DNA from: an uncultured delta proteobacterium
GTDB lineage: Bacteria > Desulfobacterota > Binatia > Binatales > Binataceae
Direction of reading: 5' to 3'
DNA length: 64,000 nucleotides
NCBI GenBank assembly: GCA_963794325.1
Contig: CAWCDG010000004.1
Location: 384,001-448,000 of the forward strand
Shown here: positions 4,019 to 9,698 of the stretch, in pieces
Numbering within the stretch: position 1 is the stretch's first letter
How the letters are laid out: every line of letters begins with the position of its first letter
Notes under the pieces: generated by a model
Database searches by the model: none
Told to the model about the DNA's origin: nothing
What the model saw: the letters and a program-made list of their open reading frames with translations, nothing else
Program-made: the position numbers and the translations under genes

Positions 4019-4552
4019 CTACGCCAGCGCCTCAAGGAGCGCGCCCGGTGATGCGTTGTCGCCGAAGGTCGCGCTCACATGAGCGTAGAGATCGACGTTG
4101 CCGGGACCGAAAACGAAACTGCCGCCGAGCTGAAAGGGATTCGCGCCCAAGCGATGCTGTCGATGGCCGGCGGCCGTGGCGCGCGTCCTGGCTTTCGCAT
4201 TGTCACTGCGAAGCAGGTGCAGAAGATTCGCCGCTTTGAGGCCGGCCGCACGATACGCGAGCCGCTGCGCATCTACCAGGAGCGGAAATGTGATTCCAGT
4301 CTCCTCGCGAAAGAGGCGAGCGTAACGAAGATCGCCAAGACCGATTGCGGCAAGATTGACGCCCTTGGCGCGGAATTCATTTTCATGGTCGCGCAACTGC
4401 GCAACATGCTCGCGGCAGAAGATTCAACCGTAGTGGCGGAGGAAGACGATAGCGGCGGGGCTGCGTTCCCATAAAGAGCCGAGCCGGACTTCGCGATCAT
4501 CTGTATCGGGCAGGGTAATTCCGGAGAGCGCAAGACTGAGCGAGTCGGACAT
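4019..4552 (-). CDS. Selenoprotein: AhpC/TSA (peroxiredoxin-like, SelL-related) redox protein with UxxC motif; Sec at codon 43 (TGA 4424-4426)
   Basis: ATG 4552 reads MSDSLSLALSGITLPDTDDREVRLGSLWERSPAAIVFLRHYG-TGA-IFCREHVAQLRDHENEF and continues in frame into the 4019..4396 ORF. The TGA sits at the first Cys of the CxxC. A SECIS-like hairpin follows. Confidence 0.85.
4384..4408 (-). promoter_or_regulatory. Putative bacterial SECIS element
   Basis: CAUGUUGCGC-AGUU-GCGCGAC-CAUG hairpin. The apical loop starts 25 nt after the UGA and has G at loop position 2. Confidence 0.65.
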
Positions 4553-4611
4553 CGTCGGAACCTAACACGATCAGGCGAGAATCGGCAAAAGAAGCGTCCG
4601 CGGCGTTTTGT

Positions 4612-4640
4612 TTATCCACAGATCGGCGGGTTTTTCCACA
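4612..4640 (+). promoter_or_regulatory. Two DnaA-box-like direct repeats
   Basis: TTATCCACA (4612-4620) and TTTTCCACA (4632-4640), both matching TTWTNCACA, 20 bp apart. Confidence 0.45.
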
Positions 4641-4895
4641 ATGAGGGTCTCGCGGAACTTCACGCTCGAAGATCGCCGCACTATTATCGCCGCTCAAATG
4701 ACGAAGCGGGAAGCGAAACGACGTCTTGAAAACCTCGCGCTCGAAACCGGGCACAAGAGGAATTACTACGTCAAGCGGGCGCTGGTCGAATTTCTGGATC
4801 GCAACGAACATCTCTTCGGCCAGCGGCCGACGCGATCGGTGGGATTCTCGACGCTCGACGAGATCCCATACCGCGCGAACCGATTCTTGCTCTGA
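4641..4895 (+). CDS. Small ribbon-helix-helix-like DNA-binding protein
   Basis: KRRLENLALETGHKRNYYVKRALVEFL resembles RelB/CopG-type RHH helices. Start uncertain (4641 or 4698). Confidence 0.55.
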   Translation: MRVSRNFTLEDRRTIIAAQMTKREAKRRLENLALETGHKRNYYVKRALVEFLDRNEHLFGQRPTRSVGFSTLDEIPYRANRFLL

Positions 4896-4898
4896 TTG

Positions 4899-5532
4899 CT
4901 CTCTCGTAGCGATCTTTCTGGATCCCTCGCCCGTTACTTCACGGGAGAGGTTAGGTGAGGGTCCCGGGCGCCATCGTGATGCTCGACAAATCGCGTTGCG
5001 CTGAGCATCCGACTGATCTCTTGAGCAAGGCGGGTGACAATCAGTTCCGCAAGTGAGACTATTTGTCAATGCCGGACCTCACACCGCCGCGAGTGATCGC
5101 GAAGCAACCGCTGGCTCGCTCCCGCGCACTCCGTCGCAATTCCACTGACGCCGAGAAACGCCTGTGGGCGATCCTCCGAAACCGAAATCTCGACCGCTGG
5201 AAATTCCGTCGGCAGGTGGCAATCGATTCATTCATCGTCGATTTCTGCTGCATCGAAGCGCGGCTAATTGTTGAGCTCGATGGAGGACAGCACGCAGACA
5301 AACGCAAGCGTTACGACGATGCACGAACACGGGAGCTCAAAGCCCTCGGTTTCAGAGTGCTTAGATTTTGGAATGGAGAAGTGTTGCAGGAGACTGAAGG
5401 CGTCGTTGAAGAGATCAGTCGGATGCTCAGCGCAACGAGAAATGTCGAGCATCACGATGGCAACCGGAACCCTCACCTAACCTCTCCCGTGAAGTAACGG
5501 GCGAGGGACCAGAAAGAATCGCAACGAGAGAG
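4899..5532. mobile_element. DUF559 nuclease cassette bounded by 124-bp inverted repeats (4899-5022 / 5409-5532)
   Basis: Manual alignment shows about 9 differences over 124 nt. Each arm contains the family-A palindrome CCCTCACCTAACCTCTCCCGT..ACGGGCGAGGG. Confidence 0.65.
5069..5497 (+). CDS. DUF559 / Vsr-like endonuclease domain protein
   Basis: RALRRNSTDAEKRLWAILR, KFRRQVAIDSFIVDFCC, LIVELDGGQH, DDART..LGFRVLRFWN motifs. Confidence 0.92.
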   Translation: MPDLTPPRVIAKQPLARSRALRRNSTDAEKRLWAILRNRNLDRWKFRRQVAIDSFIVDFCCIEARLIVELDGGQHADKRKRYDDARTRELKALGFRVLRFWNGEVLQETEGVVEEISRMLSATRNVEHHDGNRNPHLTSPVK

Positions 5533-5533
5533 T

Positions 5534-5570
5534 AAAAAAATTCGGGGGCTGGGATTGCTCCCAGCCCCCT
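5534..5570 (-). terminator. Rho-independent terminator
   Basis: GGGGGCTGGGA-GCAA-TCCCAGCCCCC followed by GAATTTTTTT on the minus strand. Confidence 0.85.
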
Positions 5571-5940
5571 GCCGTCACCACATCCGCCGCCCCACCACAT
5601 CCTGTTAAGGGCGCGAGTCTTGTCGCGCCTTTCTAGTAAGTGGGTCCCGGAGAAATCGTCATCCCCATTTTCTCCGAGAGCTGGCTGAAACTTTTTCGCC
5701 GCGCCCTCCATACCGCACCCTCTCCGCATCGGCCTCATCGCCAGTCTCTCGAAAACCTCCCTCCACAATTCCCCGGGACCCTTGAGTCTCCTTCTTCAGT
5801 TCAGTCCCGCACGCCTCTCGAAAAGTTCCGCGTCGGGACAGTTCGCGTTTCTCCAGCGTGAGAGCAAGCGCTTCGATTCCGCTGCTTCGCTTCTTCTTTA
5901 GTCGCGAACGAAACGCTCTACGCGAAGATCAAATTGCACT
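5534..5940 (-). ncRNA. Candidate large structured ncRNA downstream of nrdJ
   Basis: No credible ORF. Strongly purine-rich minus strand with multiple nested stems and many GGA motifs, an upstream TTGACG at 5963-5968 and a terminator at the 3' end. Confidence 0.5.
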
Positions 5941-6059
5941 GCTGAGAAAGAAACGTCGAGTCCGTCAAGATAGTTGAGCATGATACACTGAGCGATCCAG
6001 TCGCCAGTCCTTCCAGTCGATAGCATGCATGCCACAAACTCGATTTCCATCGCACCCTC

Positions 6060-8876
6060 CTATGAGCACCCGCTGGTGGTGCCGCAGTTCATGCATTTGT
6101 AGCAGGCGCCGTTGCGCACCATTATGCTGCCGCAGTCCGGGCATGGCGGCGCATCCGCCTGATTGATGAACGCCTGCCGGATGCCACCGTCCTTGCCGTC
6201 GCGCAGGCTGGCCACCGGAGCCATGGCGACCATTGCGATTGGCATGTCGGATTTTGCCGACAGCGGTTTTTCGGATTCGATAATTCCGACTTCGCGCTTG
6301 GCTTCTTCGTCCAGGAACTTCGACGCCATCCAGCGGAACAGGTAGTCGACGATCGACTTGGCGTACGGAATCTGCGGATTCTTGCTGAAGCCCGACGGCT
6401 CGAAGCGCATGTGCGAGAATTTGTCCACGAGGAATTGCAGCGGAACCCCGTACTGCAGCGCGAACGAAATCGCCGTCGCGAACGAGTCCATCAGGCCAGA
6501 GATAGTCGAGCCCTGCTTGGACATCGTGACGAAAATTTCGCCCGGCGTGCCGTCCTCGTACATGCCGACCGTGATGTAACCTTCGTGGCCGGCGATATCG
6601 AATTTGTGCGTGATCGATCGGCGCTCGTCGGGCAGCTTGCGCCGCTGCATCCGCTCGTCGGTCGCCGCGATCGCCGCCGCTGCGACCGTCTCGACCGCCT
6701 TCTCGGCCTTGCTGGTGTTGAGCGGCTGCGTGCGCTTCGATCCGTCCCGATAAATCGCGACCGCTTTCAGCCCGAGCTTCCACGCGGTGACGTAAGCCTC
6801 GGCGACTTCGTCAACGGTCGCTTCCGCGGGCATGTTGATGGTCTTGGAAATCGCGCCGGAGATGAACGGCTGGACGGCACCCATCATCTTGATGTGCCCG
6901 TTGTAGTGAATCGTGCGGGCGCCGGCGCGCGGCTTGAATGCGCAATCGAAAACCGCGAGATGCGCATCGGCCAGCTGCGGTGCGCCTTCAATCGTCTCGT
7001 TCTCGTCGAGGTACTCGACGATTTCCTGCACTTCCTTCGAATCGTAGCCGAGGCGCTTGAGCGCGCGCGGCACGGTGCCATTGACAATTTTCAGCATCCC
7101 GCCGCCGACCAGCTTTTTGTACTTGATCAGCGCGATGTCGGGCTCGATGCCGGTGGTGTCGCAATCCATCATGAATGCGATGGTGCCGGTCGGCGCGATC
7201 ACGGTCGCCTGCGAATTGCGATAGCCGGCCGCGGTACCGAGTTTCAGCGCTTCGTCCCATGAGTCGCGCGCGGCGCGCAGCAGGTCGAGCGGAACGTACG
7301 ACGGATCGAGCTTGTAGGCGTACGATTTGTGGCGGTCGATAACTTTCAGCATCGGCTCGCGATTTGGCGCGTAGCCGGCGAACGGTCCCATGTGCTCGGC
7401 GATGCGCGCCGACTGCAGATAGGCCTCGCCCGTCATCAGCGCGGTGATCGCGGCGGCGTAGCTGCGGCCCTGGTCACTGTCGTAAGGCATCCCGAGCGCC
7501 ATCAGCAGCGCGCCGAGGTTCGCGAAGCCAAGCCCGAGCTCACGGAAGGCGCTGGCGTTCTTGGCGATCTCGTCGGTGGGATAGGACGAGTTGTCGACGA
7601 TGATATCCTGCGCCGTGATCATTACATCGATCGCGTGGCGGAATGCGCGCACGTCGAACTCGCCACGATCGTCGATGAACTTCATCAGGTTGAGCGACGC
7701 GAGATTGCACGCGGAGTTGTCGAGATGCATGTACTCGCTGCACGGATTCGACGCGTTGATGCGCCCGCTGGCCGGGCAGGTGTGCCACAGGTTGATAGTG
7801 GTATCGAACTGCATCCCGGGGTCGCCGCATGCGTGGGCAGCCTCGGCGATCATGTGGAGTATCCTGCGCGCGGGGCGGGTCTCGGCAACCTCGCTCGACT
7901 TGACGAAGTGGGTCTGCCATTCGGCGTCGTCGAGCACCGACTGCATGAAGCCGTCGGTCGCGCGCACACTGTTGTTCGCGTTCTGGAAAAATACCGAGCC
8001 GTAAGCGGGGCCGTCGAGCGAGGAGTCGTAACCGGCCTCGATCAGCGCCCACGCCTTGCGCTCTTCCTCTACTTTGCACTTGATGAAATCGACGATGTCA
8101 GGATGGTCGGCGTTGAGCACGACCATCTTGGCCGCGCGGCGGGTCTTGCCGCCCGACTTGATTACCCCGGCGCTCGCGTCGGCCGCCTTCATGAACGACA
8201 ACGGTCCCGAAGCGGTGCCGCCCGCCGAAAGTTTCTCGCGCGAACCGCGCAGCGCGGAGAGGTTGACGCCGGCGCCCGATCCGCCTTTGAAGATCATGCC
8301 CTCATTGCGGTACCAGCTCAGGATCGAGTCCATGCTGTCCTCGACCTTGAGGATGAAGCATGCGGAGCACTGCGGTTTGGCCTCGATGCCGACGTTGAAA
8401 TAGACCGGGCTGTTGAACGACACCTTCTGATTGAGGAGCAGGTATTTGAGCTCGTCGTGGAAAGTCTCGCGCGCGTCGGCGTCGGCAAAATAATCCTGCT
8501 TCTCGCTCCATCCCGCGATGGTGTCGACGACGCGCGAGATCAATTGGCGGACGCTGTTCTCGCGACGCGGCGTGCCGAGCGGTCCGCGAAAATATTTCGA
8601 GACGACGACGTTGGTGGCGGTTTGCGACCAGGCTCGCGGAACTTCGACATCTTTCTGCTCGAAGACAACGCGGCCGTCCTCGCCCGAGATAACGGCGCTG
8701 CGGAGATCCCACTCGACTTGCGAATACGGATCGACGCCGGCGGTCGTGAAGAACCGCTCGAGTACGATGCCGCGACCGGGCGCCGCAGAATTGACCGCGC
8801 CGCCATTGAGGGCTGGTGCGCGGTCGGTTGTTTTTGCCTTGGAATCCATCTCGAAATCTATCGCTCCCCCACCCAT
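6060..8876 (-). CDS. nrdJ: Vitamin B12-dependent class II ribonucleotide reductase
   Basis: FNSPV, QCSACFI, GGKTRRAAKM, ASNPCSEY, IAPTGTI, DTTGIEP, SKTIN motifs, a TSCPD domain and a C-terminal Zn ribbon. GGAGG SD 8 nt before ATG 8876. Confidence 0.97.
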   Translation of the reverse strand: MGGGAIDFEMDSKAKTTDRAPALNGGAVNSAAPGRGIVLERFFTTAGVDPYSQVEWDLRSAVISGEDGRVVFEQKDVEVPRAWSQTATNVVVSKYFRGPLGTPRRENSVRQLISRVVDTIAGWSEKQDYFADADARETFHDELKYLLLNQKVSFNSPVYFNVGIEAKPQCSACFILKVEDSMDSILSWYRNEGMIFKGGSGAGVNLSALRGSREKLSAGGTASGPLSFMKAADASAGVIKSGGKTRRAAKMVVLNADHPDIVDFIKCKVEEERKAWALIEAGYDSSLDGPAYGSVFFQNANNSVRATDGFMQSVLDDAEWQTHFVKSSEVAETRPARRILHMIAEAAHACGDPGMQFDTTINLWHTCPASGRINASNPCSEYMHLDNSACNLASLNLMKFIDDRGEFDVRAFRHAIDVMITAQDIIVDNSSYPTDEIAKNASAFRELGLGFANLGALLMALGMPYDSDQGRSYAAAITALMTGEAYLQSARIAEHMGPFAGYAPNREPMLKVIDRHKSYAYKLDPSYVPLDLLRAARDSWDEALKLGTAAGYRNSQATVIAPTGTIAFMMDCDTTGIEPDIALIKYKKLVGGGMLKIVNGTVPRALKRLGYDSKEVQEIVEYLDENETIEGAPQLADAHLAVFDCAFKPRAGARTIHYNGHIKMMGAVQPFISGAISKTINMPAEATVDEVAEAYVTAWKLGLKAVAIYRDGSKRTQPLNTSKAEKAVETVAAAAIAATDERMQRRKLPDERRSITHKFDIAGHEGYITVGMYEDGTPGEIFVTMSKQGSTISGLMDSFATAISFALQYGVPLQFLVDKFSHMRFEPSGFSKNPQIPYAKSIVDYLFRWMASKFLDEEAKREVGIIESEKPLSAKSDMPIAMVAMAPVASLRDGKDGGIRQAFINQADAPPCPDCGSIMVRNGACYKCMNCGTTSGCS

Positions 8877-9036
8877 CGCCACATCCTCCCCGCCTCGGTT
8901 ACACGCGCGTTAAGCCCACATCCGGATCCACCAGAACAAACGTCGCTTTTCGGCTGGCTGTGACACAATCTGGAGTCGCCAAGAGCGTGGTGGCCGTCAA
9001 TATGCGCGCCGCCCGTGAGGTCTGTCAAGCCCCGAC

Positions 9037-9084
9037 CCACTACAGGTAGTGTGTAACAAGCTGTGCACAACCTATATATTAGGT
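9037..9084. promoter_or_regulatory. Tandem NrdR boxes
   Basis: CCACTACAGGTAGTGT (9037-9052) and AACCTATATATTAGGT (9069-9084) resemble acaCwAtATaTwGtgt, spaced 32 bp, upstream of nrdJ. Confidence 0.8.
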
Positions 9085-9236
9085 TGTTGATAACTTTTGG
9101 TAAATATTCGCTCATATTAATAATTGTGACTGACCGACGGGGCGATATAAGTATAACTAATGAACAATCGCGCCTGATTTGTCATTGCGGCGGTCTCTGA
9201 CCATACACGCGGTATGCGTTCGAACGCGGCGGCGCT

Positions 9237-9698
9237 ATGGTGAGTCGCGCGATGCCAACTCGACGCCACAAGGCTCCCGAACAGATCGGCGCGGCGATGC
9301 AACCGCTCCTCGATCGGATCGATCGCGAAGGTCATTTCGCGATCGTGCGGCTGGCGAAAGCATGGCCGGAGATCGTCGGCGAAACGATCGCGCGCCGCAC
9401 CGAAATCGTCTCGCTGAAATTCCACACCGCGGTGGTAAAAGTTTCCGGTGCGATGTGGATACAAGAATTGAATCTGATGAAGTCGCAGATCCTCGCGCGC
9501 GTGACCGACCGAATCGGCGATGACGTAGTGCGCGAATTGCGCTTCGTGCGAGGAACGCTCAGTCGGCGCGAGCGGCCGAAATTGCGCACGGTGCCGCGCG
9601 CAACGCGAAAATCAATCGAGCTGCCGGAGCTGAAGGATCCCGAATTGCGGAAGGCATTCGAAAGTTTGATCGAGGCATGGGGTCGCGCTTCGCGCTGA
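9237..9698 (+). CDS. dciA: DUF721 / DciA family protein
   Basis: AWPEIVGETIARRT...VKVSGAMWIQELNLMKSQIL...VRELRF is the DUF721 signature. Confidence 0.8.
   Translation: MVSRAMPTRRHKAPEQIGAAMQPLLDRIDREGHFAIVRLAKAWPEIVGETIARRTEIVSLKFHTAVVKVSGAMWIQELNLMKSQILARVTDRIGDDVVRELRFVRGTLSRRERPKLRTVPRATRKSIELPELKDPELRKAFESLIEAWGRASR

Follow-up and report, generated by a model that had tools for sequence, protein, structure and literature searches.

Ribonucleotide reductase genes are controlled at their promoters and also by 5′ elements, and bacterial 3′ UTRs give rise to small RNAs (sRNAs) and sponges of the CpxQ, SdhX and SroC type. A conserved single strand just before the terminator is common among such 3′-derived sRNAs. 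Promoter control of ribonucleotide reductase genes by NrdR is treated in the part of PMC4009431 drawn on here, and the portion of PMC12528414 that concerns Pseudomonas aeruginosa nrdAB describes a long 5′ UTR that affects mRNA levels and stability. For Campylobacter, a host without Hfq, the relevant sections of PMC8687705 describe how the C/U-rich sRNA CJnc190 represses ptmG via a ribosome-binding site (RBS) that is G-rich, with CJnc180 as antagonist. The RNA described here lies downstream of nrdJ in the window, by which we mean the whole 64,000-nt stretch of Binataceae DNA that was analysed. Like the CpxQ, SdhX and SroC type, it shares the terminator of an mRNA, lacks a promoter of its own and keeps a conserved single strand before the terminator, but it is longer, contains a covarying long-range stem and belongs to a host without Hfq, and any processing and targets are putative. 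With the nrdAB leader, as portrayed in that portion of PMC12528414 and compared by description only, it has in common that untranslated RNA accompanies a ribonucleotide reductase operon, while differing in its 3′ rather than 5′ position and in a class II rather than class Ia enzyme. The G-rich RBS, the absence of Hfq from the host and a long duplex as a possible RNase III site recall CJnc190 and ptmG as those sections of PMC8687705 present them; unlike there, the conserved RNA is here the G-rich side, would be on the same transcript as the G-rich RBS, and no C-rich partner was found. In our literature search we met no description of an nrdJ message with a conserved 3′ RNA, and the main texts of the 2026 preprints contain neither nrdJ nor Binat-; their supplements may list it.

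Comparative sequence evidence strongly supports a Binataceae-wide, folded, G-rich RNA at the 3′ end of nrdJ that was previously uncatalogued. The element is very likely a selected structured RNA, is likely to be part of the nrdJ transcript, and probably acts in post-transcriptional control of the nrdJ message. The features of the locus are the following.

5534..5796, minus strand: conserved structured RNA of ~260 nt, likely the 3′ end of the nrdJ transcription unit (homology, covariance model, folding)
5642..5781, minus strand: P1, a long-range stem of 13-15 bp, 5781-5768 with about 5655-5642 (core CCCCGGRGRA / UYCYCCGGGG)
5755-5740 with 5685-5671, minus strand: P2, inside P1 and variable across genera (alignment, folding)
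5609..5630, minus strand: P3, a small hairpin whose sequence varies and whose pairing is kept (covariation)
5570..5599, minus strand: G-rich single-stranded tract whose core is GGAUG (within-genus identity 96%)
5533..5569, minus strand: intrinsic-terminator-like hairpin with a mostly GNRA loop and a U-rich tail (hairpin search, alignment)
5796..6050, minus strand: frameshifted copy of an ORF of ~80 aa, not part of the RNA (alignment with intact relatives)
6060..8876, minus strand: nrdJ, class II (B12) ribonucleotide reductase with a TSCPD domain, 938 aa (sole PF02867 match in the genome)
8864..8891, minus strand: nrdJ translation-initiation region, unusually G-rich (G content, gene-start comparison)
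8998..9087, minus strand: conserved nrdJ promoter region (conservation in relatives, likeness to NrdR boxes)

An earlier note on this DNA had proposed an ~400-nt structured non-coding RNA downstream of nrdJ, of which the 3′ ~260 nt (5796-5534) stand and the 5′ ~170 nt do not. The motifs that it named all lie on the minus strand where it had placed them (TTGACG at 5968-5963, the stems, the rod at 5781-5642 and the hairpin at 5630-5609), and the strong terminator is present as a hairpin at 5569-5544 with a U run. The fold signal of the whole 435-nt stretch (z -2.8) resides entirely in its 3′ part, with z -4.6 for 5796-5534 (263 nt) against +0.18 for 5968-5797 in the shuffle comparison. A DNA search of 61 genomes with the 435-nt query gave matches in 35 of 36 genomes of the genus at E<=0.01, three of them weak; these mostly begin at about query position 265, corresponding to window position 5796, and the 5′ part was matched lengthwise in one relative. 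Taken by the note as non-coding RNA, 5968-5797 sits in the frameshifted small ORF and folds at the level of shuffled sequence, and TTGACG and the first two stems lie inside the same ORF copy (5796..6050). A minus-strand promoter scan of 4500-7000 was also empty. The idea of an independent sRNA starting at TTGACG is not supported, with the DNA 5′ of the element being the nrdJ stop or unrelated small ORFs. A conserved ORF, which the note had named as another possible explanation of the region, accounts for the 5′ part (5796-6050) and not for the 3′ 260 nt. The more general proposal of a conserved structured RNA or long 3′ UTR of no known family is supported by conservation, covariation and negative Rfam searches; in the relatives, the 3′ element is kept and its pairs covary.

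The ~80 aa ORF between nrdJ and the RNA is intact in relatives. An 80-codon copy follows nrdJ in L002 and aligns with the window's 5′ part, and five genomes besides L002 (duplicate rows taken once) carry intact homologues after nrdJ, with 76-80 aa matched at 48-84% identity to the L002 copy. In the window the ORF is broken into pieces across frames, and these frameshifts may reflect decay or an assembly error. A second protein family occupies the slot in L089-L128; its members have 86-150 aa with the pattern GH...CxxC..F.F...W.L, occur in 10 genera, at times in tandem, and matched no Pfam family beyond weak zinc-ribbon matches. Four strong genus matches of the zinc-ribbon-like ORF adjoin the RNA; as an obligate partner it was rejected, being present in 4 of 36 genus genomes, and its Atlas matches were below 0.9. 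On the other side of the RNA, a DUF559 gene (5063-5497, plus strand) has a copy of a 38-nt REP-like palindrome on either side, the two being inverted, within window positions 4924-5507. Its 3′ end recurs there as a partial repeat, and similar cassettes follow the RNA in several relatives.

From 5′ to 3′, the element consists of P1 around a variable G-rich domain, P3, the ~30-nt tract and the terminator-like hairpin with its U tail. P1 encloses purine-rich bulges, P2 and a G-rich loop; the enclosed domain measures 55-132 nt, and P2 is missing in several genera. The genus, aligned with MAFFT, has 96.7% of its cells paired and shows two-sided changes in 7 of 46 pairs. Across the family, 43 of 46 pairs change on both sides and 95% of cells are paired, versus 74% in shuffled and 41-56% in slid controls, in an alignment that was fitted to the covariance model and takes in three short reverse-strand matches. 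A model-free test on 41 loci recovered P1 as the best long helix in 36, beating all ten shuffles in 28, and a matching partner is retained by 25 different P1 5′ arms. Cells that depart from Watson-Crick pairing are mostly G-U, with few A-C mismatches (81 versus 7; 105 versus 19 in a separate count), which places the RNA on the nrdJ strand. An antisense RNA was rejected because wobble pairs and U tail favour the nrdJ strand, and also because conservation ends at the U tail and leaves no conserved antisense promoter. The final hairpin is GC-rich and is followed by a U-rich tail on one strand, as in intrinsic terminators, with an imperfect tail in many genomes.

Sequence is conserved in the single strands as well. 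Within the genus, identity reaches 96% in the tract and 99.7% in the terminator, compared with 79% at fourfold sites of nrdJ, and in 40 of 40 loci the GGAUG core has its GGA unchanged. G makes up 46% and C 15% of the unpaired positions, a G skew of 0.30 was matched by none of 876 non-coding flanks, and the tract ties for the highest G content upstream of the 132 terminator-like hairpins of the genome. RAUGNGG, a motif picked after inspection, is enriched (5 versus 0.4 expected in shuffles). Protein coding by the 260 nt was rejected, with no frame kept across loci and indels not in threes, as was an AUG-UGG-UGA mini-frame in the tract, which is lost in many genera. A role in priming replication at oriC was also rejected (the distance to dnaA and to the skew minimum is ~0.7 Mb), as was a repeat or cassette site (the genome has one copy). 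Rfam 15 yielded only a tRNA in the window at the gathering threshold; ranked by E-value, the best match in the region was BjrC68 with 20.6 of 39 bits, confined to the terminator, and among 12 related loci only group II intron pieces were found, in one locus and outside the element. It is not a missing housekeeping RNA either, as tmRNA, RNase P RNA and SRP RNA were all found elsewhere in the genome.

Covariance-model matches were obtained in 119 of 151 Binataceae genomes at E<=0.1 (114 at E<=1e-6; family assignment by record titles), mostly once each and in 25 of 30 genera. At all 41 family loci fetched, i.e. 40 covariance-model matches picked for genus spread and one locus from the search, nrdJ lies upstream on the same strand. 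An exact 24-nt pattern had 52 matches among 185,579 species, 51 of them after nrdJ and the 52nd with 19 bases upstream; 22 are labelled Binataceae, Binatus or Binatia, 27 unclassified deltaproteobacteria and three otherwise. Of 25 genomes in which the first model had given a weak match or none (including 20 of the 32 negatives), a second model covering the 3′ 96 nt matched 14, in 12 of which the match follows nrdJ. At 23 of 30 genus loci the long stem begins 16-18 nt after the nrdJ stop; the gap is 41 nt at another and 273-378 nt at the remaining six, which carry an inserted ORF. Downstream of the element, the DNA differs in nearly every genome. Two side observations belong here: in one genus a G-rich tract also precedes a terminator after a different gene (L365, L367), and L121 (4000-6460) has a partial duplicate of the RNA 2.2 kb downstream without the P1 5′ arm, with several changes in the orphaned P1 3′ arm and unrelated ORFs between the copies.

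Homology outside the family was rejected, with no convincing model match. The first model found nothing better than E ~0.08 at the nrdJ flank of 24 class loci, the second gave E 0.0006-0.3 at four class nrdJ flanks, and none of its 16 fetched weak matches in other families lies beside nrdJ. Seventeen of 80 metagenome nrdJ loci scored, all with a NrdJ 65-93% identical to that of the window, and other classes of the phylum have a different NrdJ type. Elsewhere in the class, 14 of 23 nrdJ flanks from families other than this one have a G-rich, C-poor 40-mer in their first 200 nt, versus 1.9% of 3,098 flanks, a control drawn from this one genome, and kin among the 23 flanks are not independent. 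These G-rich flanks may be simpler relatives or analogues of the element.

In the genome tested, nrdJ encodes the single class I/II reductase. Its promoter region comprises two NrdR-box-like palindromes (9087-9067 and 9052-9037), TTGACA at 9028-9023 and a -10-like site near 9004-8999; it is conserved between the window and 19 of the 20 relatives fetched, the script having failed to locate it in one. Both palindromes resemble the NrdR-box consensus in the part of PMC4009431 that gives it, and NrdR is encoded in the genome. Divergent from nrdJ across this conserved AT-rich region lies dciA (window 9237-9698, plus strand). Among the genus loci compared, no conserved promoter lies directly 5′ of the element because the upstream DNA is nrdJ or unrelated ORFs, and the element shares the terminator of the upstream nrdJ mRNA, the arrangement found in 3′-UTR-derived sRNAs. 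Contigs of relatives from four soil RNA runs cover element and nrdJ, and one runs 98 nt past the terminator hairpin; such contigs speak for presence in RNA libraries only, not for strand, ends or level, and DNA carry-over is possible. A small share of words (0.08-0.17) is contained in 24 RNA runs, which were chosen because they contain the element and whose depth cannot rank element against nrdJ.

We tentatively propose a mechanism that we consider possible, if short of likely: the 3′ tail of the nrdJ mRNA would be a binding site for a factor that also reads the nrdJ RBS. The transcript would start at the NrdR-controlled promoter and end at the element's own intrinsic terminator, and P1 and P3 would hold out single strands rich in G and poor in C. 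With its GGAUG core, the tract that precedes the terminator would be the sequence-specific site of the putative factor, a candidate C-rich small RNA or G-reading protein that would also recognise the G-rich nrdJ RBS, and the tail would thereby tune nrdJ translation or decay, as a built-in mRNA decoy or a stable 3′ fragment. The more specific form of this proposal, a 3′ decoy of the message's own RBS that titrates a putative G-tract-reading regulator and has simpler G-rich versions across the class, strikes us as rather doubtful. Both ends of the message are G-rich: nrdJ starts of the family average 57% G versus 36±9% over 756 starts in the window's genome. A 28-nt stretch taken from the tract agrees with the nrdJ start at 20 of 28 positions, the best among 2,792 gene starts (next 18; register fixed on the start codon), in a window picked after the likeness was noticed, and a degenerate 14-mer common to tract and nrdJ start occurs four times in 4.4 Mb, twice at the nrdJ locus. 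The tract matched the nrdJ start of its own genome no better than those of other genera (36 loci, 22 genera, permutation p 0.26-0.54), so that the likeness may be one of shared composition, and co-evolution of the tract or a terminator arm with the nrdJ start was not found (4 of 40 loci dropped for an uncertain start). Judged by these sequence comparisons, tract and RBS would have a loosely specified binding site in common, and the one would not be a co-evolving copy of the other. As to the factor, exact and PWM scans, which would miss short seeds, singled out no complementary non-coding locus, no Hfq exceeded the cut-off in 61 genomes, and SpoVG was not found in one 85%-complete genome. In the leader of an smc-like gene (G000:C4:67407, plus strand), the G-rich stretch GGAUGCGG also gives a score with the tract matrix.

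The same conservation can be read without a specific partner, as a passive 3′-end module in which the stems hold back 3′ exonucleases, the scarcity of C in the strands protects the untranslated tail from Rho, and the opposite strand, being C-rich, halts antisense transcription from the variable downstream DNA. Rho loads on C-rich, G-poor RNA and is encoded here, and the unmatched G skew and the ever-changing downstream DNA agree with such a role; the invariant GGA, the highly identical unpaired tract and the sequence-conserved P1 core are left unexplained by it, and in other families some of the G-rich flanks, several in number, face a co-directional gene that has a promoter of its own. We hold this account to be somewhat unlikely. 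A base-pairing sRNA cut from the nrdJ mRNA, for instance by RNase III in P1, would pair its G/U-rich tract with C-rich stretches of other mRNAs. It is indeed immediately 5′ of the terminator that the most conserved single strand lies, and where the tract varies, C and U mostly replace each other, a change tolerated by a G partner. With no Hfq over the cut-off, no processed end seen in RNA contigs that show cover and not ends, and most complementary genomic 11-mers looking coding, many of them in a recurring KPHP-type codon run, a released sRNA is nevertheless unlikely. We consider it improbable that a tertiary fold or G-quadruplex serves as a ligand or ion sensor that controls termination or decay. 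For 22 of 30 family sequences ViennaRNA does place a two-tier quadruplex in the minimum free energy structure, some P1 pairs are invariant or nearly so and the terminator loop is mostly GNRA, but the quadruplex gains 1.2 kcal/mol in the window, a value without shuffle control, the inner domain is highly variable in both length and sequence, the downstream side offers nothing conserved that could be regulated, and loci without the GNRA loop keep the P1 core.

The earlier note had also thought of a CsrB/Rsm-like protein sponge or a 6S-like rod, and neither idea fared well. Like CsrB, RsmY and RsmZ, the element is purine-rich, ends in a terminator and has many GGA triplets (9-16 per copy); the more than 15 counted in the note are real (17), yet shuffles average 16.6 and 498 of 1000 dinucleotide shuffles reach the count. 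Within the element itself GGA is not enriched (12 versus 12.5 in shuffles) and lies mostly outside hairpin loops (2 of 12 in short ones), and unlike those sponges the element is tied to nrdJ. CsrA is nearly absent, found in 0 of 37 genus genomes and in 1 of 121 family genomes, that one with 7% contamination. A CsrA sponge of the CsrB/RsmY type is already largely refuted and extremely improbable. A divergent or second 6S RNA would fit the outline of stem, two-sided bulge and stem seen in the one genus, the single copy and the failure of Rfam to find a 6S RNA there. Unlike 6S RNA, the element has no promoter of its own and no rod of fixed length, given the variable domain inside P1 and the frequent loss of P2, and the zapA-ygfA slot is occupied by a separate conserved RNA in 23 of 25 genus genomes (one weakly). 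RF00013 did not match the element, a weak test in this genus because the candidate RNA at the usual 6S slot also fails Rfam. All told, we judge a 6S identity very improbable. The RNA at that slot (G000:C4:74036-74330; L039, L130) is conserved and structured, with a closing stem and inner stems with extra inserts, is missed by Rfam and is probably a divergent 6S RNA; its neighbours we take to be zapA-like and ygfA-like from sequence likeness and recall.

With its well-covarying pairs, the element is ready to enter Rfam as a family. Since Binataceae lack Hfq and CsrA and the genome tested has a single class I/II reductase, the element is also a concrete bait for tracing RNA regulation in such bacteria. 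If the tail does act as a decoy, it would supplement NrdR with a further, post-transcriptional level of dNTP control that works without Hfq or CsrA.
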